Shown piece after piece: positions 5,955 to 62,832 of a stretch of DNA of 64,000 bases; position 1 is the stretch's first letter; each line of letters starts with the position of its first letter. The translations under genes were made by a program, and so were the position numbers. The notes under the pieces are model-generated. The model made no database searches, was not told the DNA's origin, and worked only from the letters and a program-made list of their open reading frames with translations. Source of the stretch: Bacteroidales bacterium (GTDB lineage: Bacteria > Bacteroidota > Bacteroidia > Bacteroidales > JBGRPZ01); assembly GCA_041725955.1 (NCBI GenBank), contig JBGRQE010000006.1, positions 37,593 to 101,592 of the forward strand, in the 5' to 3' direction.

Positions 5955-5986
5955 ATATAGTTAATTTTAAGACTTGTTAATAATTG

Positions 5987-6421: not shown

Positions 6422-6477
6422 TTTGGATTTAATATTATTTATTATTGCAAGTAGTAAGTTATATTTTACAGAAGCAT

Positions 6478-21278: not shown

Positions 21279-21459
21279 GTACTTACTATTTTATATTTAC
21301 TATTTAAGAAATATTATTTTTTCTCTCTGTTTATTGCCAGCTGTTTAGATTGTACCAATATCCTGTAGTTTTGAATTATTAAAAATAGATATAAGGGTTT
21401 TGTATTGTGGTATAGTTTTTGAATATTTGAAGGGAAATCAGTTTAAAAAAGTTTATTTT

Positions 21460-35930: not shown

Positions 35931-37151
35931 ATGAAAAAAACTAATATTTATGGCTGGATGATGTGGTTCATCGCAGCACTCTTTTATGCTTTAGACTATT
36001 TTCAGCATACAGCACCGAGTGTGCTTATAAAACCTATAGCGAATAGTGCGGGGATTTCGTTTATAGATGTGGCTGACATTATGAGTTTGTATTTTCCTGT
36101 TTATGCGATTTCACAAATTCCAGCGGGTTATATTTTAGACAAATATGGGGTAAGAAGAATTTTGGCTATTGCTTGTGTTGTTGTTAGTGCGGGGCTTGGA
36201 CTAATGACTTTACCAGAAGTGGGTTCATTGGTTGTTGGAAGAATATTAATTGCAATAGGGTCGGCATTTGCTTTTTTAGGGGCATTAAAAACAGCATCAG
36301 CATCATTGTCTGCAAGAGCTTTTCCTGTAGCTGTTGGTTTAACAAATACAATTGGAGTGTTGGGAGGAATACTAGGACAGCCTTTTCTGAACTTTCTTAT
36401 TATGAAATTTGACTGGATTAAGGCCTCTCTATATATTGTGTTTTTTGGATTAATCTTGGCTGTATTTATATTTATGTTTTTACGTATTAAAAAGGTCAAA
36501 CACGTGGAGGCAGTGAAACTCGACTACCGATCTATATACCGGGATAAAAAGATTTGGTTTTTGGCTATTTATGCTGGTATTATGGTGGGAACTATTGTAA
36601 ATGCATTTGGCGAACTCTATGGAGTAAGTTTTTTGGAAGATGCTTTTCGTTTAACATCAGAAAAAGCGTCTTTGATTAGTTCTACTGTATTTATTGGAAT
36701 TGCTGTTGGAGGGCCTTTACATGGTTTTATAGCCAAAAAGTTTAAGGGTAATCATACATGGATGATTATTGCAAATATAGGGAGTATAGTTTCCTTTAGT
36801 TTAATTGTATTAAGTGCATTGGTTGCTATTCCTTACTTTGTCCTTTTTGCATTGTATTTTCTTACTGGTTTTTTTGTGTCTTCTATGCTATTGGCTTTTT
36901 CTGTGGCCAGAAGCGACTATCCAAAACAGATTCATGGAGCTATTTTTGCATTGGTAAATATGGTTATTGGAGTAAGTGGGTTTGTTTTTCAGTTTATGTT
37001 GGGAAAAATGTTAAAGTTGTTCCTTGGCGATTATGGAGCACATCTTAAGAATATAGCTTATGTTAAAGGATTACTTATTCTTTTGATTCCTTTGTTAATT
37101 AGCATGTTCTTGTGCATAAACATTGCGCGTAAGCATAAAACTGTACAATAG
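35931..37151 (+). CDS. MFS transporter
   Basis: It is 406 aa with about 12 hydrophobic helices and an MFS-like loop (LDKYGVRR) after TM2. Confidence 0.8.
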   Translation: MKKTNIYGWMMWFIAALFYALDYFQHTAPSVLIKPIANSAGISFIDVADIMSLYFPVYAISQIPAGYILDKYGVRRILAIACVVVSAGLGLMTLPEVGSLVVGRILIAIGSAFAFLGALKTASASLSARAFPVAVGLTNTIGVLGGILGQPFLNFLIMKFDWIKASLYIVFFGLILAVFIFMFLRIKKVKHVEAVKLDYRSIYRDKKIWFLAIYAGIMVGTIVNAFGELYGVSFLEDAFRLTSEKASLISSTVFIGIAVGGPLHGFIAKKFKGNHTWMIIANIGSIVSFSLIVLSALVAIPYFVLFALYFLTGFFVSSMLLAFSVARSDYPKQIHGAIFALVNMVIGVSGFVFQFMLGKMLKLFLGDYGAHLKNIAYVKGLLILLIPLLISMFLCINIARKHKTVQ

Positions 37152-37206: not shown

Positions 37207-38160
37207 TTATTGCAAGTATTCTTGGGGTTCAAATCCAAAGGTTTGTTTAAATAATTTCGAGAATTCTTCTATAGATTTATACCCCAAAAGCTTTGCTGTT
37301 TCTTCTATAGATTTTTTCTTGTTGAAATAGCTTAAAGCTTTGTCCATTCTAGTTTTTATAACAAACTGACTAATTGTATTTCCATAGAGTTCGAAGATTA
37401 GAAGTTTTAGCCTATCTAAAAAAATGCCTGTTTTTTCAGCAACATATTCATCTGTATAGTAAATCTTAGGATTATGTTTGATTTCGTTTTGCATATTAAG
37501 TAGTGCTTTTGCTTCTTCTTCTTTAAGGTAGATTTCAGTGTTTTTTTCTAATGAATTAAAGAAAAGAGAGCATAACTCAATTGCTTTACCATATGCATAT
37601 TGCTTTCTAAAGTCTCCTTCCTCAAAAGAAATCATAACATCTGTCAAAATCTTTATTATCTCTTTTGAAGGCTCTTGATGAAAAAGAAATGAATCTAATG
37701 CCATTAAAGAATACAAGTACTGCTTTTCTTTAAATTCAAAAAATTTTTTTGCAAAGGTTTTTGTAAACAAAAGGCAAAATTGAAAGTAAATTTCGTTGGG
37801 AGGGATAATCACAGTTCTCTTATAATTTGCAGTTCCAAAGTATCCTCCACATTTTAATTTTGAAGTAAACGTAGCCTTGCCTCTTTGTTCGGATAGAGTA
37901 ACATTTCTGGGCAGATAAAAATCCAGAGATAAGAGATCGTCATTATCAGTTCCTATTCTAACCAATAATGATTCATAGTTTGTATTTGAACATAAAAAAG
38001 AAAGGCTAAAGTTTTCGGGATAGTCATAAACTTCAATATGTAATTTTCCCAGCGATTCAGGCATGTCGAAAGTATGCCCCAGCCATGGTGCTCCAACCAT
38101 TCTGGCAAATTCGGAAGCTACTTCGATGTAGTTGTTTAGTTTATATCTGTATACAATCAT
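37207..38160 (-). CDS. AraC-family transcriptional regulator (paralog A)
   Basis: It has a C-terminal AraC HTH (LLGYKSIEEFSKLFKQTFGFEPQEY) and an uncharacterised N-terminal domain of about 200 aa. Confidence 0.8.
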   Translation of the reverse strand: MIVYRYKLNNYIEVASEFARMVGAPWLGHTFDMPESLGKLHIEVYDYPENFSLSFLCSNTNYESLLVRIGTDNDDLLSLDFYLPRNVTLSEQRGKATFTSKLKCGGYFGTANYKRTVIIPPNEIYFQFCLLFTKTFAKKFFEFKEKQYLYSLMALDSFLFHQEPSKEIIKILTDVMISFEEGDFRKQYAYGKAIELCSLFFNSLEKNTEIYLKEEEAKALLNMQNEIKHNPKIYYTDEYVAEKTGIFLDRLKLLIFELYGNTISQFVIKTRMDKALSYFNKKKSIEETAKLLGYKSIEEFSKLFKQTFGFEPQEYLQ

Positions 38161-38361
38161 GTTTTTTGCAATTATTTTTTACGCAAAGCGTACCATTTAA
38201 TACTTGACACTTGCAACGAATCACAAAAAGTTAAATAAGATGTTATGAGTTTTGTTCTTACAAAAAATGTTATCCAATAACCTCTATATATAAAATGAAA
38301 AAATAAAAAACTTTATTGTAAAGACGTGATTAATAGTGTTCTAAATGTGTGGTTCTTATGC

Positions 38362-39333
38362 TTAGGCAGATAAATTACCTTTTTGATATTCACTAGGTAA
38401 AAAACCAAATGTTTGTTTAAAAGCTTTGGAAAAGTGACTTAAGTTAGAGTATCCAATAAGGTATCCGGTTTCACTTACCGTTTTTCCTTCGCTAAGGAAA
38501 GACATGGCTTTATCCATTTTTAACTTCTTTACGAATTGCCCAATGCTGCTTCCATAGAGTTCGTTTAGGAGTATTTTTAAGCGGTAATGTGATAAACCTG
38601 TTTTCGCTAAAATATATGGGATTGTAAATTCTTTTGCAGGATTATGAAGAATTTCTTTTTGGAGTTCATAAAGTAATGCAGCTTCATAATCGCTAAGATG
38701 AATTTCGGGGCATTGTTCTAATGAGTCAAAAAACAAAGTAGCAAGTTCAAGGGCTTTTGCATAAGCAAATTGTTTTCTGTAATGATTCTCGTCAAATGAT
38801 AGCATAATGTTGGTTAAAACATTAATAAGCTCGCGTGAAGGAGGTTGATAAATAAAAAAACGATCTAAATTCATTAAAGACTGAAGGGTTTTACTTTTAT
38901 TTGGTGAAAGTTCAAAAAACCTCTTTAAGAATGTTCTGCTTAATATAATATTAAATTGAAAAAAGTTTTCTTTGGCAGGTATCTTAATTGTCGATTTATA
39001 ATTCGAAGTGCCAAAGTAGCCCCCATACTTTAATTTGCTAAAGCCTTCTTCTCCTTCTTCAATAGATAGTTTTACATCTTTGGGAATATAAAAATCTAAG
39101 GTAAGTAAGTCTTCATTGTCAGTACCTGTACGAACAAGGTTTGATTCATAGTTCATAAATGAACTAAGGAAGGAAACACTAAAGTTATCTTCATAATTAT
39201 ACACTTCTATATGTAGCTTTCCTAGTGTCTCTGGCATTTCAAAATAATGTCCATGCCAGGGAACATTAATCATTTTTGCAAAGCCCGAGGCACAACTTAT
39301 GTAGTCATTTACTATGTAACGATAGACAATCAT
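38362..39333 (-). CDS. AraC-family transcriptional regulator (paralog B)
   Basis: It has the same architecture as 37207..38160 and shares MIVYRY, GKLHIEVY, LVRxGTDNxDLLxLDFY and FKQTFGF. Confidence 0.8.
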   Translation of the reverse strand: MIVYRYIVNDYISCASGFAKMINVPWHGHYFEMPETLGKLHIEVYNYEDNFSVSFLSSFMNYESNLVRTGTDNEDLLTLDFYIPKDVKLSIEEGEEGFSKLKYGGYFGTSNYKSTIKIPAKENFFQFNIILSRTFLKRFFELSPNKSKTLQSLMNLDRFFIYQPPSRELINVLTNIMLSFDENHYRKQFAYAKALELATLFFDSLEQCPEIHLSDYEAALLYELQKEILHNPAKEFTIPYILAKTGLSHYRLKILLNELYGSSIGQFVKKLKMDKAMSFLSEGKTVSETGYLIGYSNLSHFSKAFKQTFGFLPSEYQKGNLSA

Positions 39334-39574: not shown

Positions 39575-40381
39575 ATGAATAAGAAAGGATATCTTCTAGT
39601 ACTAATATTGCTAATAATCTTACCTTTTACAATCATTTCTCAGAAAGACAGAAATGATGATGTATATGACTATGCCTGGACTATTGGAGAAGAGCTTACT
39701 TATAGGGTTTATTACCAATCTTTAATTACAGGACAAGTAACTGCAGGAGAAGCAGTGCTTAGTGTAACTGAAAAAAACAAACTTTTTGAAGGACGCTCTA
39801 CTTATAATATTGTTGGTACAGGAAAATCAAAAGGTGCATTTAATTTCTTTTATAAAGTAAGAGATCGTTTTGAGTCGTATGTTGACAGAGAAACTTTGGT
39901 GCCATATCTTTTTATTCGACGTACACGTGAGGGGAGCTATAGGAAAGATGATGATGTATACTTCAATCAAAAAAAGAATACTGCAAAAAGTAGAGATACT
40001 TTGATGAAGGTTCCTGAAAATATTCACGATTTTGTTTCTGCACTTTATTATGCCAGAACTGTTGATTTAGACTCTGTAATAAAAAATCAGGGATTTAAAA
40101 TTGATTTCTTTCTTGACGATAGCACTTATTATTCATGGGTTAAATATGAGGGGCGAGAAACAATCCGAACAAAACTGGGTACTTTTAAGTGTCTTAAACT
40201 TGCTCCAATGGCTGCTACAGGTAAGGTGTTTTCTGAAAAATATCCTATGCATATCTGGGTGACGGATGATGAAAATAGAGTTCCTGTTCTTGCCGCATCA
40301 GCAGTAATAGTGGGCAGTGTTAGAATGGAACTTAAAGATTATAAAGGCTTAAAATATCCTATGAGTGCGAAACTAGAATGA
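39575..40381 (+). CDS. Hypothetical secreted protein (DUF3108-like by recall)
   Basis: It has a signal peptide, is 268 aa and appears beta-rich. The family assignment is from memory only. Confidence 0.45.
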   Translation: MNKKGYLLVLILLIILPFTIISQKDRNDDVYDYAWTIGEELTYRVYYQSLITGQVTAGEAVLSVTEKNKLFEGRSTYNIVGTGKSKGAFNFFYKVRDRFESYVDRETLVPYLFIRRTREGSYRKDDDVYFNQKKNTAKSRDTLMKVPENIHDFVSALYYARTVDLDSVIKNQGFKIDFFLDDSTYYSWVKYEGRETIRTKLGTFKCLKLAPMAATGKVFSEKYPMHIWVTDDENRVPVLAASAVIVGSVRMELKDYKGLKYPMSAKLE

Positions 40382-40474
40382 CCAATATTGTGTTTTGGGC
40401 TTTTTCCTGAATATAGAGAATGTATGTAAGGTGATTTTTTTACTCTTTAAGATTACTATTATCAGAGGATATGA

Positions 40475-40508
40475 AAAATGCTGTAAGAACTTTATCCTAC
40501 AGCATTTT
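40475..40508. terminator. Bidirectional hairpin between the DUF3108-like gene and the first peptide gene
   Basis: An 11-bp stem, AAAATGCTGTA / TACAGCATTTT, with a 12-nt loop. T-rich sequence follows on both strands. Confidence 0.6.
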
Positions 40509-40554
40509 ATAATCTTTTAAAATCCTTTTTGGGACTAAACAAAATAACTTTACG

Positions 40555-40731
40555 TTATTTGGAACAACCAGGAATCAATGTAGCTAAACATGTAATCCCT
40601 ACTCCAAGTAGACTAATTTCTATCCAACAAGGATGTCCGCTACGTTCATTACCATTCATATTGTTAAACTTTAAAGAAGATATATTTTCTTTTCTTAAGC
40701 AAAGTTTGTTTTTTAGGTCTTTAGTTTTCAT
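40555..40731 (-). CDS. Unannotated 58-aa peptide: leader-like N-terminus plus hydrophobic Cys-containing C-terminal half (copy 1)
   Basis: Hand translation gives MKTKDLKNKLCLRKENISSLKFNNMNGNERSGHPCWIEISLLGVGITCLATLIPGCSK. It is exactly 59 codons from ATG to TAA, and copy 2 is a paralog. Thirteen synonymous differences fall at conserved residues, which argues that this frame is under selection. Confidence 0.7.
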   Translation of the reverse strand: MKTKDLKNKLCLRKENISSLKFNNMNGNERSGHPCWIEISLLGVGITCLATLIPGCSK

Positions 40732-40839
40732 AGTTTTAGTTTTTTAAACGAGTTTGTTTTTTTAGGTCCGAAAAGTTTTTACTATTCTCAATTACAATTA
40801 TTATAACTAATTGATTACATATCAAATTATCGCATAATG

Positions 40840-41016
40840 TTATTCGGTGCAATGAGGTAATAATGAGGCTAAACATGTAACTCCTACTCCAAGGAGACTC
40901 ATTTCTACCCAACAATCTTCACCAGTACGTCCTATACAATTCTTATTATTTCTATTAAGAGAAGATACATTCTCTTTTCTTAGACAAAGCTTGTCTGAGA
41001 GGTTTTTAGTTTTCAT
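40840..41016 (-). CDS. Unannotated 58-aa peptide, paralog of 40555..40731 (copy 2)
   Basis: Hand translation gives MKTKNLSDKLCLRKENVSSLNRNNKNCIGRTGEDCWVEMSLLGVGVTCLASLLPHCTE. It is 37/58 identical to copy 1. The roughly 45-nt 5' leader region is also conserved (CGRACCTAAAAAA..AAACTCGTTTAAAAAACTAAAACTATG). Confidence 0.7.
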   Translation of the reverse strand: MKTKNLSDKLCLRKENVSSLNRNNKNCIGRTGEDCWVEMSLLGVGVTCLASLLPHCTE

Positions 41017-41418
41017 AGTTTTAGTTTTTTAAACGAGTTTAGTTTTTTAGGTTCGGAAGGCTATTGTTATTTTTAAGCATAAGTATTTCGACTAAATGCA
41101 TTAAAGCATATTCCTTACCAATAAAGGAAAATGGCGCAATGCATTAAGTGTAATAATATCTTTAAATTACTACCAGCCTAGTGTAATTCTAAGTTTATTA
41201 TTCTTTCCTTTTACGTTAAAGATTAGATAATTAATAACGTATTTCTAGTTAGGTTTTATTGTGTACGTATTTTATCCTGCACTGTTGTACAGGATTAACT
41301 TATTTAACCCTACGGGCATTTTTATACTATAGGTTTTATGTGAGTTATTCATTTTGCAGTGGTATAATGCATTAGCTTTTGCTAAAATTCAATCGGAGCT
41401 TATCGTATTTTATAGTAC

Positions 41419-41447
41419 AAAAAAAAGCTGCCTTTTTTTGACAGCTC
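41419..41447 (-). terminator. Rho-independent terminator after the lipoprotein operon
   Basis: The minus strand reads GAGCTGTC aaaaaaa GGCAGCTT, followed by T6, starting 15 nt after the stop at 41462. Confidence 0.65.
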
Positions 41448-41461
41448 ATTATCTTTTTTAA

Positions 41462-41989
41462 TCAAATTCCACAAAAGATTCCATCTTTGTTAAACTTAAC
41501 ACTCCCTTCTTTTTCAAGCTTTTCTTTGTAGTTTATATACTTATCTAATAAGTCTGATTTGAAGCAAGATTCTAGAGAGTCCTTACTGAAAACTTTTACA
41601 TTCTTTACAATTCCATTTTTTAATTCAAAAAAGTTAACAGCTCCAAAATCATAGTCATAGCTTTCGAATACCCCATTTTTGTCTAAAATTGTTTGAATAT
41701 GTTGCTTAAGGTTTGATGGAATATTTAATGGTTTCCCATGAATCAAGCATAGCTTTTTGTCTTCTTGTATATAATGGTCTAAAGCGTTTGTAAACGACTG
41801 GACACAACCCAAGCAAGTCAATGTCGGAATAACAATTAATAGTTTTTGAGGTTCTTTAATTTGCTCTTCTCCAATTTCTTCAAGATAAAGTTTTACCAGC
41901 TTGGTTTCATAAGAGTATGGATTTTCTTCTTTGCATGAAATACAAAAGGCAAAAGCCATTATTATGCTGTAAATTATCTTTCTATTCAT
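41462..41989 (-). CDS. Predicted lipoprotein with a CxxC motif (thioredoxin-fold-like)
   Basis: It has a lipobox (AFAFCISC). The CxxC motif sits in a beta-strand-then-helix context (LLIVIPTLTCLGCVQSF) like that of redoxins. It is 175 aa and overlaps the upstream gene by 8 nt. Confidence 0.55.
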   Translation of the reverse strand: MNRKIIYSIIMAFAFCISCKEENPYSYETKLVKLYLEEIGEEQIKEPQKLLIVIPTLTCLGCVQSFTNALDHYIQEDKKLCLIHGKPLNIPSNLKQHIQTILDKNGVFESYDYDFGAVNFFELKNGIVKNVKVFSKDSLESCFKSDLLDKYINYKEKLEKEGSVKFNKDGIFCGI

Positions 41990-43163
41990 TATTGTTTATT
42001 GAATATAAGGTAAAAAGAAATGAGCTATTTTCTATACGTTCTCCAATCCAAATTCCTTTCTTTTCAGGAAGGACATAATGGTATCTCGCTTTTACAAAGG
42101 GATCATATTTATTTTCAAAAATTAAATTAAAATTATTATCATAAACTAGAAAATACTGATTTTTAGAATATTCATCTTTTAATGTTTTAGAGTTTTTTGT
42201 GACTTTGGTTTCTCCTCTAAATGTCCGAAAATATATATTACGATGTTTATCATAGATAAATGATTCATATTTTCTTTCTTTTTTTAAATATGGTATCATG
42301 GTAAATATTTCAGAAGTATTAAATTCATCTGATATTCCAATGAAATCTTTTTTCGGATTTTGAATTCCACAGTAATGCTGAGTTTTAAGCTTTCCTTCTT
42401 TATATATAAAAATGCTATCGTTCTTTTCAAAGCTTACACAAAGTTCATTATCATTATTTATACAAAGTTCAAAAGTTGTTTTGTAAAATCTTTTTTGTTT
42501 GTATATTTCAGGATAATAGATGTTTAACATTTCTATGGGGCATACCTTATCACAATTGACTTTAATGCCAAAACCATTTTGAAAATATTTTTCTCTTATT
42601 TTTTTGGAATTGAAAGTACTTATCATATTAGTATGGAAGAAAGAATACCCATTTTTTTCTGTAACAGGTTGTTCAGAAAATTTAATCCAATGCATTGGTT
42701 CAATATTGGAAAGGGTGTTTAAACTTTTTTGTAGTTTGCCATTGTCTGAGTAAAATTGTAGAATCCTCGGGTTATCTTTGTAGAAAGGCTGTAAATTAAT
42801 GACATACCCTTTGTTTTCTAACCAAGAAAAGTATGCTCGATATTCTTGAATATTTAATGAATCTGGGAAAATTGTAGGATAGGATATTTCTGTTGTATTT
42901 TTACTTATTAAGTCAATTTTTTTAATGTACACAATTTTTTTTTCCTCATCGAATGCCGCAAAGCGAAGGGTGTCATTGTGAATGACAGATTTTAAAAATG
43001 ATGTGTATCTCGATTTAAGTTCAGTAAAATTTTTAAAATCTAGATTGATTTTGAATGATTCAATTGGATCAAAAAAATCTGAATAACGATTTCTCTTTTT
43101 AGAACAAGAATTTAATATTACTAACGATAACAATATTATTAAATAATATTTTTTATTCATCAT
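41982..43163 (-). CDS. Hypothetical AT-rich lipoprotein of about 393 aa (possibly a DUF4221 / 6-bladed beta-propeller-type Bacteroidota lipoprotein)
   Basis: It has a lipobox (LVILNSC) and a composition rich in F, Y, N and K. I prefer the ATG at 43163 or 43160 over the track's TTG at 43205. The family guess is from memory only. Confidence 0.55.
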   Translation of the reverse strand: MMNKKYYLIILLSLVILNSCSKKRNRYSDFFDPIESFKINLDFKNFTELKSRYTSFLKSVIHNDTLRFAAFDEEKKIVYIKKIDLISKNTTEISYPTIFPDSLNIQEYRAYFSWLENKGYVINLQPFYKDNPRILQFYSDNGKLQKSLNTLSNIEPMHWIKFSEQPVTEKNGYSFFHTNMISTFNSKKIREKYFQNGFGIKVNCDKVCPIEMLNIYYPEIYKQKRFYKTTFELCINNDNELCVSFEKNDSIFIYKEGKLKTQHYCGIQNPKKDFIGISDEFNTSEIFTMIPYLKKERKYESFIYDKHRNIYFRTFRGETKVTKNSKTLKDEYSKNQYFLVYDNNFNLIFENKYDPFVKARYHYVLPEKKGIWIGERIENSSFLFTLYSINNNE

Positions 43164-43242
43164 CAATTTTTTTAGTTGATGTATTATTGCATGAGAATGC
43201 AACAAACATTGCGAAAAACGAAAATAAGAATAGCTTTTTCAT
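43153..43242 (-). CDS. Possible 29-codon mini-ORF encoding only a lipoprotein signal peptide (or a remnant of one)
   Basis: Hand translation gives MKKLFLFSFFAMFVAFSCNNTSTKKIDDE, followed by a stop. It is out of frame with the start of the next gene and overlaps it. Confidence 0.25.
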   Translation of the reverse strand: MKKLFLFSFFAMFVAFSCNNTSTKKIDDE

Positions 43243-43572
43243 ACGAATTAAAATTTTGAATCTCTAATGTTGTTTGTTTTAAAGACTTTTGGTTATTTAT
43301 TATTTAGCATTACTGTAAATGCAACTTAATCTACTTTTTACTGTAGTTTTTACTTTTCTGCATATTACAATTAAGAATTTTAAAACTTTTTTGTCTTATT
43401 TCTTTGGCAAAAAAAATATAGGTTTGGTTTATGGTTATAATGTTGACCCTATTAATTAGTTGTAATTATAATAAAAAAAAACAATACGATAGTAAGATAT
43501 TGAAAAAAATTAACAGCATAGTTGTTTTGGTAATCCGCACAAGTATATAATAGAGAGGAAAGATAAGTAAAA

Positions 43573-43663
43573 CCTACAACATACCCCTGTCCTACACTGC
43601 AACATACCCTTGTCCCACGCTACGCATACCCCTGTCGTACACTACGACACACCCCCTGTCGTA
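43573..43663. repeat. Four tandem copies of a 22-24-bp unit (core ATACCCCTGTC)
   Basis: The core motif occurs at 43581, 43604 and 43626, with a variant at 43648. The array lies just beyond the leuS terminator hairpin. Confidence 0.85.
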
Positions 43664-43665
43664 AT

Positions 43666-43700
43666 AAATAAAAAAGGACTGCGAATAGATCACAGTCCTT
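43666..43700 (-). terminator. Rho-independent terminator of leuS
   Basis: The stem AAGGACTG / CAGTCCTT has an 11-nt loop, and TTTTTTATTTATT follows on the minus strand. It lies about 134 nt after the leuS stop. Confidence 0.6.
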
Positions 43701-43833
43701 TGTTACTTGTTTTGCAGGATTTGATTTTAGCTGACAGTAAATTCGTTTTCACAAACTCCTATACGAAGCTTTCTGCCATTTCGAGGAGTCAGTTATTAGC
43801 TCCTCTTCAATATTTTAGGATTATTCAGAAAAC

Positions 43834-46602
43834 TTAAATCACAACATTGATAATTCGTTTCGGAACAATAATTATTTTCTTTGGAGTTTTACCATCCAGA
43901 TATTTCTGAGCTCCTTCGGCAGACAGAACCGCTTTTTCCATTTCATCCTTAGCCATATCTAAAGGAAATTCAATTTTGAAACGCATCTTTCCGTTGAAGG
44001 AAACAGGATATTCAAATGAATTTTCTTTGGTATAGTCTTCAATATATTCAGGGAAAGAAGCTTCTACAATACTATCTTTATGTCCGAGAGCATTCCATAG
44101 TTCTTCACATAAGTGAGGAGCAAAGGCACTTAACATTACGGTAATTGGCTCAAGAATTTCTCTTTTGTTACACTTAAGGTCTGATAGTTCGTTTACACAA
44201 ATCATAAATCCACTAACAGCAGTGTTGAAAGAAAATCTTTCGTTATCGTCTTGAATCTTCTTGATGGTTTTATGAAGAACCTTTAGTTCATCTTTGCTTG
44301 CTGCTGCATCAGAAACTTCAAATTCGCCTTCTGCATTTTGGAATAATCTCCAGAACTTACGGATAAAGCGGAATACTCCTTCAATACCTTTGGTGTCCCA
44401 AGGCTTACTTTGCTCTAGCGGACCTAAGAACATTTCGTAAAGACGAAGGGTGTCGGCTCCATATTTTTCGATCAAATCGTCTGGATTTTGAACGTTGTAA
44501 TAGGATTTCGACATCTTCTCTACTTCCCAACCACAAAAGTACTTGCCATCTTCAAGAATAAATTCAGCATCCTTAAAATCGGGTCTCCATTGCCTAAAAC
44601 CTTCCTGATCTAGAATATCGTTATTAACCAATGCAATATCTACTCTGATTTCCTGAACGTCGTAGTCTTTTCTAAGGTTGTAAGAAACAAACTGATTGCT
44701 GCCTTTTATGCGGTATACAAAGCTTGTGCGACCTTGAATCATTCCTTGGTTAATTAACTTCTTGAATGGTTCGTCTTCGCAACAAACTCCCAAATCAAAT
44801 AGGAATTTATTCCAGAAGCGAGAGTAAATTAAATGACCAGTTGCGTGTTCTGCTCCTCCTATATAAAGGTCAACATTTCTCCAGTATCCGTTTGCTTCCT
44901 TAGAGAAATATTCATTCTGATTGCGAGGGTCCATATAGCGCAAGTAGTATCCACTCGATCCGGCAAAACCAGGCATGGTATTGGTTTCTATACGATATCC
45001 GTCTTCAGTAACCCAATTATTTGCACGAGCCAAAGGAGGTTCGCCAGTTTCGGTAGGAAGATATTTATCTACTTCAGGAAGCTCAAGCGGAAGCTTGCTT
45101 TCGTCCATCATATATGGGATATCATCTTTATAATATACAGGGAATGGTTCTCCCCAATATCTTTGACGACTGAAAATAGCATCGCGCAAACGATAGTTGA
45201 TTTTTCCTGATCCGATATCCTCTTTTTCGATACGCTCGATAACTGCTTCCTGACCTTCTTTGACTTTCATGCCTGTGATAAAGTCGGAATTTACAAGCAC
45301 ACCGTCTTTGGCTTCAAAAGCCTCTTCAGAGATGTCGCCACCAGAAACTACTTCTACAATAGGAATGTCGAAATGTTTAGCAAAGGCATAGTCTCTTGAA
45401 TCGTGTGCAGGAACAGCCATGATAGCACCAGTACCATATCCGGCAAGCACATACTCGGCAATCCAGATTGGAACTTTTGCACCATTTAGGGGATTGATAC
45501 CGTAGGATCCGGTGAATACGCCACTAATCTTTTTTACTTCAGTTTGACGTTCTCTTTCAGAACGATTCTTTGCCCATGCAACATACTCTTCCACTTGCTT
45601 ACGGTTTTCGTCGGTGGTAAGTTCGTTTACAAGGTCGTGCTCAGGGCAGATAACCATAAAGGTTGCACCAAAGATGGTGTCGGGACGGGTAGTAAAGATC
45701 TCTATTTTCTGCTCTTCATTGTCTTCAATAGGGAACCACATAGAAGCCCCTTTAGACTTTCCAATCCAGTTTTTCTGAATTTCCTTTAATGAGTCGGTCC
45801 ACTCTAGCTTGTCTAATCCAGAAAGTAAACGCTCAGCATAGGCAGTGATTCTTAGCGACCACTGGCGCATGGTTTTTCTTTCAACAGGATGACCTCCACG
45901 AACAGACAAGCCTTCTTTTACCTCATCGTTTGCAAGAACAGTTCCTAACTCAGGACACCAGTTTACCATAGTGTCGGAAAGGAATGCCAAGCGGTAATGC
46001 ATTAGATATTCTTGTTGTTCCTTTTCGTTTAGTGCTTTCCATTCTTCGGCACTAATTTCTGGAGTCTTGTCGTCTTTAGCAGCATTGATATTTGCAGAAC
46101 CTTCTTTTGCCAAGGTTTCTATAAGGGTTTCTATAGATTCTGCTTTTTGGGTTTCATTATTAAACCAATGGTTGAATAGTTTTATAAAAGTCCACTGAGT
46201 CCATTTATAGTATTCAGGGTCGCATGTTCTAACTTCACGATCCCAGTCATAAGAGAAACCAATATTATCTAGCTGCTGTCTGTAGCGTGTAATATTTTTA
46301 TTTGTAGTAACTTCAGGGTGAGTACCTGTTTGAATAGCATATTGCTCGGCAGGTAATCCGTATGCATCGTAGCCCATTGGATGCAGAACATTAAATCCCT
46401 TTGTACGTTTAAATCTTGAATAAATATCAGAAGCAATATAACCTAGCGGATGACCAACATGAAGACCTGCACCGGAAGGATAAGGGAACATGTCTAATAC
46501 ATAAAACTTTGGCTTATCAGAGTCTACTTCAACCTTATAGGTTTTGTTCTTTTGCCAATACTCCTGCCATTTTTTCTCGATTTCTTTGAAATTATACTCC
46601 AT
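43834..46602 (-). CDS. leuS: Leucine--tRNA ligase
   Basis: It is 922 aa with the HIGH-type motif ([14 protein letters not shown]), KMSKS ([10 protein letters not shown]) and a CP1 editing domain. Confidence 0.95.
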
Positions 46603-49394: not shown

Positions 49395-50582
49395 ATGAAA
49401 AAGTTTTTATTCGTTTTTATTACACTATTCCTGTTTTCAGGAAATGGTTTTTCTCAGAATATAGAAGGAGAAGGTATCACTATTAAAACAGAGAAATCTG
49501 TGGATTGTATTATTGAAGAAATCATTAAGCCTTTTGTTGCCCCTTTAAAAAATAAAGGTAAGGTTGAAAGCCTTAGAGCTTTTGGGGATTTTGCACAAAT
49601 AGGTTGGTTTTCGAATGGATCTGCAATGGGGATTAAGGAAGGATTAGTAATATCATCAGGTTATGTAGATTCTTTACAGTATCCCAACAATAATGGGAAT
49701 TTAACAGGCCAACTGAATGGTGGGGGAGATACTGATTTAAACGGGCTTGGAAATCTTTATTCAACTAACAGTTATTCCTTTGATGCAAGTGGTGTTTGTT
49801 TTTATTTTACTCCCAAAGAAGGGGTGAGTGAGATAAAGTTTGAATTGATTTTTGGATCTGAGAATTATAATGAATTTGTGCCTGAGAAAAGTGATGAAGC
49901 CGCTATGGAAAACAGATTCATTGATCGCTTTGGAATTTTTATCAGTGGAAAGGGAATAGAAGGTCCTTTTTCGCAAAATTCAGAGAATATTGCTACAGTT
50001 CCATTTCAGTCAGATAAATATATATCATTGAATACCATTAATTGTGGTAAAGAATCATCTTTTGGTGTTACTCCTCCTGGTTATTCTGATCCTAGTCAAG
50101 GCTGTAATTGTAATATGTTGGTGTTTAATGATTTTAAAGATAATAAACATTCTGCTTTAGATGCCTATACCAAACCTATAATGGTAAAAGCCAATTTGAT
50201 TTCTGGAGAAAAGTATTTGGTGAAAATTGTTTTGGGAGATTTGAGTGATGGTAATTGGGATTCTGGATTATTTATACGTGTAAATTATGATGCCAATAAT
50301 GATGAATTTATACCCAATAAAGTTGAAGATTATGTTTCACAGAAATTATTGGAAGTATACCCCAATCCAGCAAAAGATAATGCAATAGTGATTGTGCCCT
50401 CTGATATTAAGCAGGCACAACTTAAAGTATATGATATTCATGGGAGAGTGATGGTTGAGAAGTGTGTTCATGGAGGAGAGAAAGCAAATTTATCATTGAA
50501 TCATATTCCGTCAGGAATATATTGTGTGATTATTGAGGATGGAGATGAAAATATATACAGAGAAAAGCTACAAGTAAGATAG
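49395..50582 (+). CDS. T9SS-sorted secreted protein, choice-of-anchor-L-like domain (paralog 1 of 3)
   Basis: It has a signal peptide, the core FGSENYNEFV ... DRFGIFISG ... NIATVPF ... DAYTKPIMVKANL ... KIVLGDLSDGNWDSGLFI, and the C-terminus VYPNPAKDNAIVIV...GIYCVII. Confidence 0.6.
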   Translation: MKKFLFVFITLFLFSGNGFSQNIEGEGITIKTEKSVDCIIEEIIKPFVAPLKNKGKVESLRAFGDFAQIGWFSNGSAMGIKEGLVISSGYVDSLQYPNNNGNLTGQLNGGGDTDLNGLGNLYSTNSYSFDASGVCFYFTPKEGVSEIKFELIFGSENYNEFVPEKSDEAAMENRFIDRFGIFISGKGIEGPFSQNSENIATVPFQSDKYISLNTINCGKESSFGVTPPGYSDPSQGCNCNMLVFNDFKDNKHSALDAYTKPIMVKANLISGEKYLVKIVLGDLSDGNWDSGLFIRVNYDANNDEFIPNKVEDYVSQKLLEVYPNPAKDNAIVIVPSDIKQAQLKVYDIHGRVMVEKCVHGGEKANLSLNHIPSGIYCVIIEDGDENIYREKLQVR

Positions 50583-50754
50583 AGTGATATCAAAAATCAA
50601 CCAAAATCATTTTATGTTTAAGACCACCAGTGGTAAGATAATATTGAATACAGAAGCAACCTTTTCGTATGGGTTTGTGTCTGAAGAGAATAACTTAAAC
50701 TTGATCTTAATTAAACTTATTTATTGAAATAATTGTTTTTTTAAAGCGATTAAG

Positions 50755-50785
50755 ACCCAGTTAGTTACTGGGTTGATTTTTGTTT
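50755..50785 (+). terminator. Hairpin terminator after paralog 1
   Basis: The stem ACCCAGT tagtt ACTGGGT is followed by TGATTTTTGTTT. Confidence 0.55.
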
Positions 50786-50807
50786 CTTTCTCTAAAAATA
50801 AAAAACC

Positions 50808-51983
50808 ATGAAAAAAAACTTTACTCTTTATTTAGCTCTGGTAGCAGGGCTTGTCCTTTCGTTTCAGTCTTTTGCCCAAAATAGTGGTGTTGTAGTTAAC
50901 CTTGTTGAAAACAACGAAGATGCTGTTGAAATAATCGAAAACACTCTTCTTGCACCTATTACAGATCTGGGAACAATTTCTAATATTACATATGTAGGTA
51001 GTTCTATGGCGATTGCCAGTTTTTCTAATGCTCAGGAAATTGGAATTCCATCAGGAATGATTTTAAGCACTGGAAAAGCTAAAGATGTTTTTTCTATTAA
51101 CAATAGTCCATCAAAAGGATCATCACTCAATTCTCCTGGAGATGCAATTCTAGCTGACTTAGTAGGTAATAATATAACACATGATGCTAGTTGTATTGAA
51201 TTTGATTTTATTCCTAATGATGGAGTAACAGAAATCCGTTTTGAAATGATATTTGGTTCTGAGGAATATCATGAGTATGTTTCAAAAATGGCTCAAAGAG
51301 ACGATCCTCAGGTGAATTTGTATAATGATGCTTTTGGCTTTTTTGTGACTGGATCAGATATTAATGGTGATTTTCAAAATGGAGCACTTAATATTGCCAC
51401 AGTTCCCTTTCAAGCAGATTATATAAGTGTGGGATCAGTGAATTGTGGGTATGAATCTAAGTTTAAAGTAACTCCTCCTGGTAAAATAAATCCTGTATTT
51501 GGTAGTAATTGTAGTATGCTTATTCATAATGATAATTTAGATATTGAATATTCCACATTTGATGCTTATACAAAGCCGCTAATGATTCATGCCAATTTAA
51601 CTCCAGGTTTGCAATATCATTTTAAGATTGTAATTGCAGATGCAAGAGATGGTGCTTATGATTCAGGATTGCTTTTTAGAATAAACAATGCTGCAACCAA
51701 TGATGCTTTTAAACCTACAGGATTAGGTGAGGTAAATATGGAAAATCAGATTCAGCTATCTCCAAATCCAGCAGTTGATTTTACATCCATTCAACTTCCC
51801 AATACTTTTAAGCAAGCAAGTTTAAAAGTATATGATATGCAGGGAAAAATTGTTTCGGAAAGAAGTGTTGTTGGAGGAGAGAAAGTGAAGTTACAGATTA
51901 ATGATATTCCTTCTGGTATGTATACTGTTATTGTTGAAGGAAAATCAGATCAAGTATATACTGCAAAGCTTCAAATTAGATAG
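50808..51983 (+). CDS. T9SS-sorted secreted protein, choice-of-anchor-L-like domain (paralog 2 of 3)
   Basis: The core is FGSEEYHEYV ... NDAFGFFVTG ... NIATVPF ... DAYTKPLMIHANL ... KIVIADARDGAYDSGLLF. The C-terminus reads LSPNPAVDFTSIQL...GMYTVIV. Confidence 0.6.
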   Translation: MKKNFTLYLALVAGLVLSFQSFAQNSGVVVNLVENNEDAVEIIENTLLAPITDLGTISNITYVGSSMAIASFSNAQEIGIPSGMILSTGKAKDVFSINNSPSKGSSLNSPGDAILADLVGNNITHDASCIEFDFIPNDGVTEIRFEMIFGSEEYHEYVSKMAQRDDPQVNLYNDAFGFFVTGSDINGDFQNGALNIATVPFQADYISVGSVNCGYESKFKVTPPGKINPVFGSNCSMLIHNDNLDIEYSTFDAYTKPLMIHANLTPGLQYHFKIVIADARDGAYDSGLLFRINNAATNDAFKPTGLGEVNMENQIQLSPNPAVDFTSIQLPNTFKQASLKVYDMQGKIVSERSVVGGEKVKLQINDIPSGMYTVIVEGKSDQVYTAKLQIR

Positions 51984-52119
51984 TGCAATTTTTTGAAATA
52001 AATGGGGGTATTTCTACTTAGCGAAATTTACCCTGTGCAAAAAGGGTATACAAGCTGTTTTTCTGTATGGTTTTCCCCCATATCTTTGCAATATCAATTT
52101 AAGAGGAGATCTTCCTCGT

Positions 52120-52340
52120 AGTTCATAGTTTAAATGTTTCGGTTTCATAGCCCGGAACAGAGTTTAGAGTTCATAGTTTAAATGTTTCGGTTTCATAGTC
52201 CGGAACAGAGTTTTAGTTCATAGTTTAGTCGGAATATTAGTTTCATAGCCTAGTAATTCCGCTTTGAGTTTTAGTTTTCGAGCCGGTTTCATAGCCCGGT
52301 TTAGAGTAAGTTTAGCGAAGTTTCAGTTTCATAGTCTGAG
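52120..52340. repeat. Intergenic tandem array: two near-identical 47-48-bp units followed by decaying copies, with the recurring motif GTT(T)CATAG
   Basis: Unit 1 spans 52120-52167 and unit 2 spans 52168-52214, and they are almost identical. GTTTCATAG[CT]C starts at 52142, 52190, 52240, 52286 and 52326. Stops occur in all frames. Confidence 0.9.
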
Positions 52341-52382
52341 GCTTCAATTTATTGAGAGCGCATTATATAAGCGCAAGATACA

Positions 52383-52417
52383 AAAGACTGTAATCGTAGA
52401 AGATGCAGTCTTTTTTT
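52383..52417 (+). terminator. Hairpin terminator closing the repeat-containing intergenic region
   Basis: The stem AAGACTG ... CAGTCTT has a 15-nt loop and is followed by T7. Confidence 0.55.
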
Positions 52418-52580
52418 GTTTTTACCTTTTCTTATGCAACTTTTCTATTGTTTACTGTGTCTGTAAGGTGTTATTGATCTAAAAACCTATTAATGTTATT
52501 TTTATTTAGTTGACATTCTTCTATTTCTTAAACTAAGTTGATTACTTACTCGAAGAATTGTCAAATATAAGACTAAGCAT

Positions 52581-53741
52581 ATGAAAAAGAATTATATACT
52601 ATTGATTACAGCTTTATTTTGCTTAAACAATTTCTTGTTTTCTCAGGCTCCTGATGAGAAATATTATACAGTTACTCCCGCTCAAACTGAAAATGAAGCA
52701 AAAAAGATTATTGAAGATCGTTTTCTGAAACAATTTGAAATGCAGGGAACTGTGTCGAATTTAAAAATAATTGGCGTACCTGAAGCTATCGGTTATTATG
52801 TTCATGGAGAAACTTTGGGATTAAAGAGTACTGTTGGGATTGTTTTGTCCACTGGTCGTGCAAAAAGTACTGAAGGGCCGAATGACCATTCTGGTAAGTC
52901 GGAATCTAATGGTGTAGGAGGTGATGTAGATGCTGAAATCCTTGCTCAAAATAAAACTTACGATGCTAGTGGATTTGAATTTGACTTCCACTATAATAGT
53001 GGCGAGAAGAACTTTGTTATGAGTTATGTATTCGGATCAGAGGAGTATCATGAATATAGTCCTAAGAATGATGATGATAAGGTAAATCCGTATTCTGATG
53101 TAATGGGTGTTTTTGCAACAGGCAAAAACTATAAAGGAGAATTTAGCAATCATTCCCAAAACTTTGCTTTAGTTCCTATTACAAATCAAAGTGTGAATTT
53201 AAATAATGTTCATTGTGGATATGAAAGTGAACATAGAATATTACCTCCCGGTAAGAAAGCAGGCGGAGAAAATAAAGGGCAAAATTGTAATTTTCTTGTG
53301 CATAATGATCATGTCAGTCGAAAGTATATTCAAATGGATGCTTATATAGTTCCTTTTCTTGCTTCGATTCCACTTTATTCAGATGAAAAGATGGTTCATA
53401 TAAAAGTGGTTATTGCTGATTCTAGAGATGGTGCTTATAATTCTGCAATTTTTTTGGAAGGGCCTAAATTATCCGAAGGGATTGATGACATTGATCAAGA
53501 AGACGAAATAAAAATTTATCCGAATCCTACCTCTGGTGAAGTGACTATTACAGCAGAAGAAGATATGGAACATCCTGTAATTTATGTTTATGACCTAAGA
53601 GGAAGCCTTGTTGTTTGTGAAAATCTTTCTGATGCCAAAGAAAATACGATTAATCTTTCTTTCCTTCCATCAGGAATCTATCAAGCAGTTATAAGCGATT
53701 CTGGAGTGAAATTATATTCAAAAAAGATACAAGTAAAATAA
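52581..53741 (+). CDS. T9SS-sorted secreted protein, choice-of-anchor-L-like domain (paralog 3 of 3)
   Basis: The core is FGSEEYHEYS ... SDVMGVFATG ... NFALVPI ... DAYIVPFLASIPL ... KVVIADSRDGAYNSAIFL. The C-terminus reads IYPNPTSGEVTIT...GIYQAVI. Confidence 0.6.
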   Translation: MKKNYILLITALFCLNNFLFSQAPDEKYYTVTPAQTENEAKKIIEDRFLKQFEMQGTVSNLKIIGVPEAIGYYVHGETLGLKSTVGIVLSTGRAKSTEGPNDHSGKSESNGVGGDVDAEILAQNKTYDASGFEFDFHYNSGEKNFVMSYVFGSEEYHEYSPKNDDDKVNPYSDVMGVFATGKNYKGEFSNHSQNFALVPITNQSVNLNNVHCGYESEHRILPPGKKAGGENKGQNCNFLVHNDHVSRKYIQMDAYIVPFLASIPLYSDEKMVHIKVVIADSRDGAYNSAIFLEGPKLSEGIDDIDQEDEIKIYPNPTSGEVTITAEEDMEHPVIYVYDLRGSLVVCENLSDAKENTINLSFLPSGIYQAVISDSGVKLYSKKIQVK

Positions 53742-55607: not shown

Positions 55608-57302
55608 ATGAGAAAAGGAATATTCGCTATTGCTTGTGCATTACTTATCTCTTTTGGATTTGCTTCAAAGGTAAGTGCTTGTACAAATTATATAATTACT
55701 AAGGGGGCAAGTGCAGATGGGTCTGTTCTTTTGAGCTATGCAGCAGATGCACATGTAATTTATGGAGAATTGTATCACTGGCCAGCTGCCGATCATAAGG
55801 TAGGTAGTATGGTTGATGTTTATGAATGGGATACTGGTGATTATTTAGGGAAAATTGAACAAGTACCTCATACCTATAATGTAATAGGTAATATGAACGA
55901 ATTTCAGCTTTCTATTGCTGAAACTACCTATGGTGGTCTTCCAGAATTAGGCAAGAAAAATGGTATCGTTGATTATGGTAGCTTGATATATTTAGCTTTA
56001 CAGCGTTCAAAAACTGCTCGTGAAGCAATTAAAACCATGACTGATCTTGTTGCAAAATATGGTTATGCGTCTTCTGGAGAGTCTTTTTCTATTATAGATA
56101 CCAAAGAAGCATGGATCATGGATCTTATTGGTAAAGGTGAAGGTAAAAAAGGTGCTGTATGGGTTGCTCGTCGTGTTCCTGATGGATATGTTTCTGGTCA
56201 TGCTAATCATGCACGTATTACAACTTTCCCTTTAAACGATCCTGAAAACTGTGTTTATGCTCCTGATGTAATTAGCTTTGCAAGAGAAAAAGGATATTAT
56301 AAAGGAGAAGATAAAGACTTTAGTTTTTCTGATGTTTACAATCCAGTAGATTTTGGTGGTGCACGTTTTTGTGAGATTCGTGTTTGGACCATGTTCAATA
56401 AAGTTAGCGATAACATGGACCAATATTGGGATTATGTTAAAGGTAATATCGAATATAAGAAGACTTTCATGAAAGATGGTAAAGCAAATCCTAATAAATT
56501 TGCTTCTAACCGCATGCCTCTATGGATTAAGCCAAACAGAAAAGTTAGCTTAGACGATATGATGGAATTTATGAGAGATCATCTTGAAGGAACTGAATTA
56601 GATATGTCTAAAGACGCTGGCGCAGGTCCATTTGGATGTCCTTACCGTTGGAGACCATTAACTTGGGAACATAAGGGTAAAAAATATTGTAATGAGCGCG
56701 CTACCGCTACTCAGCAAACTGGATTCTCTTTTGTTGCACAATCTCGTGCAGAACTTCCAAATGAAATTGGTGGAGTTATATGGTTTGGTGTAGATGATGC
56801 TGCAAGTACTGTTTATACTCCTATGTATTCTTCAATGACCAGAGTTCCTGAAACTTGGGCTGTTGGTAATGGTGGTATTATGGATTGGTCAGATAATTCA
56901 GCTTTCTGGATTTTCTCTCAAGTTACCAATTTAGCTTATACTCGTTATAATGTTATTCATCCTGAAATTAGAAAAGCTCAAAGAGAGCTTGAAAACAAAT
57001 TTATGACTTATGCTCCTGCTGTTGAAGCTGGTGCTATGATGTTGTATAAAAAAGATCCTAAATTGGCAGTAAAATATCTTACCGATTATTCTTGTAATAC
57101 AGGAGATCAGGTTGTTGCCGATTGGAAACATCTTTATGAAGAACTATTTATGAAGTATCATGATGGAAACGTTAGAACCCGTCGCCCAGGTCATAAAACT
57201 CCAAAAGTTGAACAGCCAGGATACGATGAGCGTTGGAAAGAAAATGTTGTGAAAGATCATGGTAAACTTCTTGAAATGCCAAAAAGTAAAAAAGGTCACT
57301 AG
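55608..57302 (+). CDS. C69-family dipeptidase (secreted)
   Basis: A signal peptide is followed directly by the nucleophile Cys in SACTNYIITKGASADGS. The protein is 564 aa. Confidence 0.85.
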   Translation: MRKGIFAIACALLISFGFASKVSACTNYIITKGASADGSVLLSYAADAHVIYGELYHWPAADHKVGSMVDVYEWDTGDYLGKIEQVPHTYNVIGNMNEFQLSIAETTYGGLPELGKKNGIVDYGSLIYLALQRSKTAREAIKTMTDLVAKYGYASSGESFSIIDTKEAWIMDLIGKGEGKKGAVWVARRVPDGYVSGHANHARITTFPLNDPENCVYAPDVISFAREKGYYKGEDKDFSFSDVYNPVDFGGARFCEIRVWTMFNKVSDNMDQYWDYVKGNIEYKKTFMKDGKANPNKFASNRMPLWIKPNRKVSLDDMMEFMRDHLEGTELDMSKDAGAGPFGCPYRWRPLTWEHKGKKYCNERATATQQTGFSFVAQSRAELPNEIGGVIWFGVDDAASTVYTPMYSSMTRVPETWAVGNGGIMDWSDNSAFWIFSQVTNLAYTRYNVIHPEIRKAQRELENKFMTYAPAVEAGAMMLYKKDPKLAVKYLTDYSCNTGDQVVADWKHLYEELFMKYHDGNVRTRRPGHKTPKVEQPGYDERWKENVVKDHGKLLEMPKSKKGH

Positions 57303-60879: not shown

Positions 60880-60916
60880 GCAGGCAGGGATTTTATTCCT
60901 GCCTGCTTTGTTGTTT
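60880..60916 (+). terminator. Hairpin terminator
   Basis: A 9-bp stem, GCAGGCAGG / CCTGCCTGC, followed by TTTGTTGTTT. Confidence 0.6.
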
Positions 60917-60979
60917 AAACATCTTAAAAATCATTATATTAGTGCCCTTAATTTCTTTTTAAAACTAAGATTATCAAAA

Positions 60980-62724: not shown

Positions 62725-62832
62725 ACATATTGATATGTATCCGTATTTATAGAATTCCTTAAGTGATACATTAATCTATTATTTTTGCCTTATATCTATA
62801 TACTCATTTTTTACGATTACGTTTATCATATT

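Follow-up and report, generated by a model that had tools for sequence, protein, structure and literature searches.

A DUF4221 propeller lipoprotein and a conserved CxxC lipoprotein form a two-gene cassette of Bacteroidota that may serve exported Cys-rich peptides

Thioredoxin-like proteins of the TlpA/ResA/CcmG/StoA/Etrx group (Pfam Redoxin / AhpC-TSA clan) are dedicated to particular envelope clients. In the methylamine dehydrogenase (Mau) system, an enzyme with a quinone cofactor, the TlpA-like accessory protein MauD is needed for the disulfides of MauA, the small disulfide-rich subunit, and the large subunit MauB is a seven-bladed beta-propeller. Here we describe a pair of minus-strand genes in a 64,000-nucleotide (nt) stretch of a Bacteroidales bacterium (GenBank assembly GCA_041725955.1, contig JBGRQE010000006.1, positions 37,593 to 101,592; the whole stretch is called the window below). 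The pair encodes a propeller lipoprotein of the DUF4221 family and a small lipoprotein with a CxxC motif, and is one complete copy of a propeller-plus-CxxC cassette that is widespread in Bacteroidota. Bacteroidetocin loci (class IIf bacteriocins; Coyne et al. 2019) also encode a thiol oxidoreductase of their own, deletion of which lowers toxin activity; the rationale given by the authors is that Bacteroides lack general disulfide-forming machinery (PMC6671954).

The bacteroidetocin loci resemble the cassette in placing a Cys-containing secreted peptide beside its own thiol oxidoreductase in Bacteroidetes, the two oxidoreductases being likened by role and not by homology. They differ in having a GG-leader peptide, a protein with five transmembrane segments (5-TM) and a C39-type ATP-binding cassette (ABC) exporter, none of which was found in the window, and in having no propeller lipoprotein. 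The Mau system is a structural analogy for which we claim no homology, and the hypervariable peptides and paralogous arrays of the cassette are a poor fit to a conserved enzyme. The NVEALA loci of gut Bacteroidales share the order of a small peptide gene followed by a propeller lipoprotein gene, but at the peptide position the window holds only a signal-like stub of 29 amino acids (aa). A private thiol oxidoreductase beside a secreted Cys peptide is a known principle; its combination with a propeller lipoprotein and the CxxC family is not described. Our literature search returned no paper on DUF4221 or NVEALA (related family accessions appeared only in apparently unrelated papers) and no description of DUF4221 paired with a CxxC lipoprotein or with Cys-rich peptides, in agreement with an earlier sequence-only reading of this DNA, which knew of no system of such composition.

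The two-gene unit comprises the following features.

41982-43163, minus strand: gene 1, lipoprotein assigned to the DUF4221 family of six-bladed beta-propellers, 393 aa from the ATG at 43163
41462-41989, minus strand: gene 2, CxxC lipoprotein of a predicted thioredoxin-like, uncurated family, 175 aa
41804-41815, minus strand: CxxC motif CLGC in the translation, with the conserved Pro55 ahead of it
41804-41830, minus strand: IPTLTCLGC stretch of gene 2 in the translation
41982-41989, minus strand: 8-nt stop/start overlap of genes 1 and 2, ATGAATAG
41415-41447, minus strand: intrinsic-terminator-like hairpin with a T run, closing the two-gene unit (stem 41447-41425, 8 bp, 4 GC pairs)

The sequence-only reading had recognized two minus-strand lipobox genes with an 8-nt overlap, a terminator behind them and peptide genes following on the same strand, all of which we confirmed in the sequence. 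The junction is likewise overlapping or abutting in homologous pairs. A hairpin scan placed 4 terminator-like sites in the region, against 1.2 expected, and an Rfam search of window positions 40000-44000 gave no match. The AT-richness attributed earlier to the large gene also held: its guanine-plus-cytosine (GC) content is 25.7%, about 4 standard deviations below that of the other window open reading frames (ORFs; 34.4 +/- 2.1%), and that of the CxxC gene is 30.3%. The low GC content of gene 1 suggests recent acquisition, or relaxed or diversifying evolution.

The large lipoprotein can be placed by family matches. Its 393-aa sequence scores 41.2 bits against Pfam PF13970 (DUF4221; cut-off 23.4) at an E value of 2.1e-10, with residues 131-352 covering model positions 94-311 of 311. 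When the window protein and six homologs were combined into a profile of partner-type proteins, this profile matched PDB 3s9j_A, 'Member of DUF4221 family', at E 2e-24 and over nearly its full length (profile positions 58-377 on residues 30-364). The signal peptide, as read from the sequence, is MMNKKYYLIILLSLVILNSC; it ends in ...VILNSC and puts the lipobox Cys at residue 20. These matches bear out the earlier guess of a DUF4221-like six-bladed propeller, and on their strength we assign the 393-aa protein to the DUF4221-family six-bladed propeller lipoproteins.

No curated family accommodates the smaller lipoprotein. The 175-aa protein matched no Pfam or NCBIfam model, and the same was true of ten further members of its family (from Bacteroides, Chitinophaga, Olivibacter, Thermoflexibacter and others). 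Its signal peptide, again read from the sequence, is MNRKIIYSIIMAFAFCISC, ending in ...FCISC with the lipobox Cys at residue 19. The sequence-only reading had spoken of a single CxxC; this is correct for the mature protein, whose sole CxxC is C59-L-G-C62, but C16-I-S-C19 of the signal peptide formally fits the motif too. An exhaustive HMMER search of 1.84 billion representatives yielded 26 remote relatives (21-31% identity), all of them lipoproteins of ~150 aa that share C59, C62 and D103 without exception. Genomic loci supplied additional members, and of the resulting 60 distinct sequences 59 retain the CxxC, which answers favorably the question of conservation among orthologs on which the earlier claim had been made to depend. 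Across this set both cysteines, the lipobox Cys and D103 are each conserved at 98%, Pro55 at 78% and Gly61 at 73%, for a family consensus of IPxxxCxGC. The C-terminal tail of the window protein (about residues 145-175) is unique to it and poorly predicted. Relatives were scarce by other routes: word-indexed protein searches with either window protein returned the query alone, the same type of search with the family alignment returned four proteins, and a metagenome scan with a three-sequence CxxC alignment gave no confirmed relative.

A single-sequence AlphaFold prediction of the CxxC protein had a predicted local distance difference test score (pLDDT) of 41; the alignment-based (AF2) model reached a pLDDT of 82.5 and a predicted template modelling score (pTM) of 0.72. 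In this model a strand (50-54) is followed by C59 and C62, a helix (60-73) and further beta-alpha-beta-beta-alpha elements, so that the CxxC sits at the N-terminus of a helix after a beta-strand. The top 15 Foldseek matches in the PDB included ResA, a Thermus thiol-disulfide isomerase, pneumococcal Etrx-type lipoprotein thioredoxins, AhpC, DsbE/CcmG and StoA, and all coherent matches were thioredoxin-fold proteins (probability up to 0.97). Like the TlpA/ResA group, the CxxC protein is small, single-domain and anchored as a lipoprotein, and its CxxC opens the first helix behind a beta-strand. Unlike that group, its family has no significant sequence or profile match to it, no Trp before the CxxC and no cis-proline; features of its own are a Pro at -4 and a Gly at +2 (IPxxxCxGC) and an invariant Asp after strand 3. 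The IPxxxCxGC consensus also resembles the PxxxTxxC motif of peroxiredoxins. We tentatively place the CxxC family in the thioredoxin-like superfamily as a new divergent family between the TlpA-like and peroxiredoxin-like groups, and infer that the lipoprotein is redox-active.

The two genes are consistently paired when the CxxC protein is the starting point. In 10 of 10 contexts reached through it (the window and the loci numbered L001, L003, L004, L005, L007, L008, L010, L086 and L087), a DUF4221-family lipoprotein gene lies directly upstream and overlaps or abuts the CxxC gene. From the propeller side, a search by the motif YDP[YW][RQ][KNQ][VF]Y[IFY] provided 38 genome loci and 39 metagenome loci, drawn from Algoriphagus, Chitinophaga, Bacteroides, Parabacteroides, Phocaeicola, Olivibacter, Thermoflexibacter, Mongoliitalea, Cytophagales and Flavobacteriales. 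When the DUF4221 genes were grouped at 90% identity (n=74 clusters), a CxxC-family gene followed directly downstream in 35. We conclude that the window pair is a complete copy of a widespread Bacteroidota cassette of propeller and CxxC lipoproteins.

On the same strand, 7-130 nt upstream of the propeller gene, there is very often an ORF of 58-95 aa that begins with MKK, continues in a hydrophobic helix (a signal-type N-terminus) and ends in a tail with 2-7 cysteines. By manual tally such an upstream peptide is present in 21 of the 34 assessable cassettes with a CxxC partner. An automated control found an upstream Cys-rich signal-type ORF at 40/77 DUF4221 ORFs as against 48/371 among the remaining ORFs of 250 aa or more (odds ratio 7.3, Fisher p 9e-13), and most of the 48 control positives were themselves other propeller-type lipoproteins of ~350 aa. 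We considered whether the small ORFs arise by chance and rejected this in view of the control and of their conservation across genera.

In gut Bacteroidales the upstream peptides match Pfam NVEALA (PF14055), with an E value of 1.6e-13 for the peptide of L024, and the NVEALA type of small peptide followed by a propeller lipoprotein occurs in L023, L024, L030, L033, L034 and L056. Outside gut Bacteroidales the peptides match no family, yet they can be aligned with the NVEALA examples and with one another, sharing the motif D[VI]xLSSL...AN-A/EC (the slash marks the putative cut) followed by 3-4 conserved Cys. The earlier reading had asked whether homologs of the pair regularly neighbor small Cys peptides; they do so regularly, but the usual peptides are Sec-type, NVEALA-related and encoded upstream of the propeller gene, unlike the peptides A and B that lie downstream of the window pair. 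Several of the upstream ORFs form an uncatalogued group of ~77-81-aa precursors common to Chitinophaga, Bacteroides, Olivibacter and metagenomes (L036 5773-6006, L037, L045, L033 5799-6038, L027 1908-2147, L076 and L082), which consist of MKKK, a hydrophobic helix, D[VI]xLSSL, AN-A/EC and a tail of ~33 aa with four conserved Cys. Their layout suggests that a long leader may be cut at an Ala-x-Ala site, releasing a four-Cys peptide of ~33 aa.

The cassette recurs in multiplied and in eroded forms. Tandem arrays of peptide-propeller-CxxC units number three units in Thermoflexibacter ruber (L044 4562-12775) and two in Algoriphagus marinus (L025 2558-7955). L011 (66-7411) has two more propellers, at least one of them TolB_like, each followed by a small CxxC lipoprotein; because the hidden Markov model (HMM) of the CxxC family misses these lipoproteins, the class of CxxC partner proteins is probably broader than the family defined here. 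Signs of decay include a DUF4221 partner broken into two ORFs, one for the signal peptide and one for the body, in L005 (6861-8025) and L087 (6939-7987), and an extra CxxC-family paralog in L010 (958-1524) that has lost both cysteines. In L086 (1378-8761) the cassette is flanked by direct-repeat copies beginning at 1378 and 8660, each of which carries the beginning of a small gene ahead of a PemK-toxin gene, its product being 76 aa long in the first copy; it also adjoins a Cys-containing lipoprotein (3391-3975), a Y1 transposase gene and, just upstream, a truncated C39-peptidase ABC exporter gene, and the region may be a mobile or rearranged island. Neighbors that recur in Bacteroides, Chitinophaga and Olivibacter (L033 4436-13791, L036 2650-11734, L027 and L029) are an S26 signal peptidase, a Wzy_C-like membrane protein, an MG2-like protein of ~780 aa, a DUF1573 lipoprotein with an N-terminal CxxC region of its own, a transglutaminase-like protein, and a TolB-like propeller with its own NVEALA peptide.

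On either side of the window pair lie the following features.

43153-43242, minus strand: 29-aa mini-ORF MKKLFLFSFFAMFVAFSCNNTSTKKIDDE, with a signal-like, lipoprotein-type N-terminus, overlapping the start of gene 1
40840-41016, minus strand: peptide A, 58 aa, with a class I lanthipeptide-type leader and a hydrophobic core with 3 Cys
40555-40731, minus strand: peptide B, 58 aa, a paralog of peptide A by alignment
43834-46602, minus strand: 922-aa ORF upstream of the cassette, with its own terminator-like hairpin; from its sequence, and without a family search, we take it to be leucyl-tRNA synthetase

The 29-aa mini-ORF, which the sequence-only reading left unmentioned, occupies the position that the peptide gene has in other cassettes. 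It has no Cys-rich tail, and it is the only ORF directly upstream of the propeller gene in the window, where a canonical small Cys-rich peptide gene is absent from this position. Possibly it is a remnant, or else encodes a very small lipoprotein. In three other loci of the window's clade (L003, L007 and L008) the upstream position is taken by a gene for a Cys-containing lipoprotein of 136-166 aa. A Pfam scan of the mini-ORF and of peptides A and B matched no family, NVEALA included.

Peptides A and B are encoded on the same strand as the pair, separated from it by 445 nt that hold no convincing ORF. The two have 64% identity and Cys 11, 35, 48 and 56 in common, and their genes constitute a tandem duplication of 285 nt (76% identity over 260 nt; 40554-41098) that includes ~80 nt upstream of each start. 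A hairpin at 40475-40508, with a 14-nt inverted repeat and a T run, gives them a terminator-like end of their own. Against the NCBIfam model for class I lanthipeptide leaders (NF038153, cut-off 22) peptide A scored 21.6 bits and peptide B 18.9 bits, and a conserved Ser or Thr lies ahead of each of the three conserved core Cys. The near-cut-off leader and the Ser/Thr before the core Cys liken the peptides, though not the lipoproteins, to class I lanthipeptide precursors of Bacteroidota; such clusters differ in encoding LanB and LanC, which were not found among the scanned ORFs of the 64 kb. The scan applied Pfam to 34 window ORFs, which took in all large ORFs (at least 286 aa) save the 922-aa ORF and a 286-aa ORF at 62785-63645, and also revealed no LanM and no radical SAM protein. 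Relatives of A and B did not appear in a pattern-plus-tblastn scan of 185,579 species genomes (142 pattern matches), in which the source genome itself likewise did not turn up. Of about 75 cassettes examined, only one other, in L004, has leader-type peptides like A and B nearby. There, at 3528-7505, seven consecutive leader-type Cys-rich peptide genes lie 1.8-5.8 kb downstream of a window-clade cassette, after purT; two of the products are 62-64 aa long with 4 Cys, and five are 81-84 aa long with a GG leader and 8-10 Cys.

Taken over the whole family, these features are best explained by a cassette in which a DUF4221 propeller and a ~150-aa CxxC lipoprotein of divergent TlpA/peroxiredoxin-like fold handle the disulfides of an exported Cys-rich peptide, an explanation to which we give about even chances. 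In its commonest form the cassette would have three genes, the first encoding a small Sec-exported NVEALA-related peptide. This peptide would be exported and its long N-terminal leader removed at the Ala-x-Ala site; the propeller lipoprotein could then bind it as a chaperone, partner subunit or immunity/receptor protein. The CxxC lipoprotein would act as a private disulfide oxidase or isomerase that forms or reshuffles the peptide's disulfides, by analogy with the bacteroidetocin loci, and such an enzyme would be needed because Bacteroides are reported to lack a general Dsb system. The hypervariability of the peptides and the paralogous arrays point to bacteriocin-like or signaling peptides rather than to an enzyme subunit.

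Several results weigh against this explanation. The Foldseek match is weak (best E 7.5e-3, none at E <= 1e-3, TM scores of 0.29-0.48 and root-mean-square deviations of 5-7 A), and searches of the PDB with the CxxC-family sequences and profile returned noise only, such as haemagglutinin HA2 and signal peptides. An hhalign comparison of the family with one peroxiredoxin was not significant, though IPxxxCxGC aligned with PxxxTxxC, and Pfam Redoxin was touched by only 2 of the 26 members (E 0.016). No conserved Pro precedes strand 118-124, where the cis-proline would be expected; the position is Ser, Asn or Ala (LxLxxxxI consensus). The thioredoxin fold that the sequence-only reading had placed around the CxxC therefore stands in its strand-CxxC-helix arrangement and in having thioredoxin-fold neighbors only, but not in the closeness of the match or in the cis-proline. 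As to the client, the small upstream peptide never occurs in the window's own CxxC clade (10 contexts), and an adjacent peptide is also found, by manual tally, in 15 of 32 loci without a CxxC partner, so that no strong dependence of the peptide on the CxxC gene is apparent. Seven of those 15 peptides sit downstream of the DUF4221 gene; in the four such loci mapped in detail the peptide lies just upstream of another propeller-type lipoprotein gene, and in L017 that further propeller-type gene is itself followed by a CxxC lipoprotein gene. Comparison of the propeller partners revealed no conserved Cys pair and hence no direct hint of a thiol client, and we rejected the propeller as such a client for this reason. 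In the window, peptides A and B have a cytoplasmic-type leader and no Sec signal, and no C39-ABC exporter was present among the 34 scanned ORFs, in accord with the earlier observation that the locus lacks an exporter. What is shown is the family membership of the propeller, the conservation of the CxxC and of the gene order, and the enrichment of Cys-rich peptide genes beside propeller genes, whereas a redox function of the CxxC protein, its peptide client and the task of the propeller are inferred.

Three other explanations must be set against the peptide-disulfide cassette. The absence of the cis-proline of catalytic thioredoxins, together with a CxGC after a beta-strand that recalls the MxCxxC of heavy-metal-associated (HMA) domains, could mean that the CxxC is a metal-binding or structural site, akin to those of copper chaperones or zinc ribbons, and the small lipoprotein a metallochaperone or propeller adaptor. 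Faint matches of the CxxC profile to the metal-binding domains of Atx1 and ATP7A exist (E 0.3-1.2), but they are not significant, the Foldseek neighbors are thioredoxin-fold and not ferredoxin-like HMA domains, and the family has only two conserved cysteines, with the invariant Asp as the sole other invariant polar residue; we regard a metal site as highly improbable. It is also conceivable that the pair has no peptide role and that a TlpA-like CxxC reductase or oxidase maintains the proper redox state of the propeller, itself an enzyme or binding protein, or of the propeller's substrate, peptide adjacency being a by-product of fast-evolving envelope-gene islands. The CxxC gene is indeed tied far more tightly to the propeller gene, as the CxxC-selected contexts attest, than to any peptide; a third of the pairs have no adjacent peptide, many window-clade pairs sit amid housekeeping genes, and the structural neighbors ResA, CcmG, StoA and Etrx reduce particular envelope proteins. 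Nevertheless, the propeller partners offer no conserved cysteines for such an enzyme, and the strong enrichment of Cys-rich peptide genes upstream of propeller genes spans Bacteroides, Chitinophaga, Olivibacter, Algoriphagus, Thermoflexibacter and metagenomes, which makes an arrangement free of peptides decidedly unlikely.

Closest to the sequence-only reading is the proposal that the pair matures, binds or gives immunity to peptides A and B, with the CxxC lipoprotein forming or isomerizing their disulfides after export. The peptides lie on the same strand a short distance downstream, and the scanned ORFs of the 64 kb offer no other candidate for their processing or export. L004, of the same clade, has its run of leader-type Cys-rich peptide genes, the L086 cassette adjoins the truncated exporter gene, and the family-wide association of cassettes with Cys peptides makes a switch of client conceivable. 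Yet a terminator separates the pair from the peptide genes, leader-type peptides are missing from the other 8 window-clade contexts and from ~65 further DUF4221 loci, and the genome-wide scan found the peptides no relatives. The conserved Ser or Thr before the core Cys and the near-threshold NF038153 match are compatible with thioether rings, formed by cytoplasmic enzymes whose genes lie elsewhere, rather than with disulfides, and the lack of a Sec signal or nearby exporter leaves access to an extracytoplasmic lipoprotein unexplained. We therefore consider this proposal rather unlikely, and a functional link of any kind between the pair and peptides A and B doubtful; the peptides may have been taken over as clients of the pair, or may be mere neighbors. 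Of the earlier claim, the broad notion that a redox lipoprotein attends to Cys peptides is supported, whereas the specific tie to A and B, a separate unit behind a terminator with leader-type counterparts only in L004, is unsupported. A bolder extension of the peptide-disulfide cassette, in which an unrecognized three-component system for disulfide-rich secreted peptides has diversified as bacteriocin or signal arrays and the window pair has been recruited to lanthipeptide-like precursors, is speculative and on balance improbable.

Other genes of the window were recorded alongside. Two adjacent AraC-family regulator genes (37207-39333, minus strand) come shortly after the peptide genes in the same orientation, and an AraC-family gene is found near the L087 cassette too; beyond the window's AraC-family genes is a major facilitator superfamily (MFS) transporter gene (35931-37151, plus strand). 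Type IX secretion C-terminal sorting domains occur at 49395-53741 (plus), 568-2742 (minus), 21400-23676 (plus) and 23945-25384 (plus), in proteins that include three similarly sized ones of ~390 aa in a row and two S8 subtilases, and two Peptidase_C69 genes are located at 55608-57302 and 60908-62578. The sorting domains, taken with the fact that every named relative of the cassette comes from Bacteroidota, indicate a Bacteroidota source for this DNA.

Bacteroidota, among them the major gut genera Bacteroides, Parabacteroides and Phocaeicola, carry many genes for DUF4221 and related propeller lipoproteins as well as NVEALA-type small proteins. Their link to an invariant-CxxC family that has no database model provides a testable hypothesis, namely that of a private disulfide machinery for secreted Cys-rich peptides in a phylum that is reported to be without DsbA/DsbB. 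The window pair is a bona fide member of the cassette, and its tie to the adjacent lanthipeptide-like peptides should not be assumed; were it true, recruitment to leader peptides would represent a new route resembling that of ribosomally synthesized and post-translationally modified peptides (RiPPs), in which a cytoplasmic-type leader is combined with extracytoplasmic thiol chemistry. The main interest of the pair lies in what it reveals about a widespread and unstudied cassette, and in the large unexplored pool of short disulfide-rich peptides, potential bacteriocins or signals, to which that cassette points.

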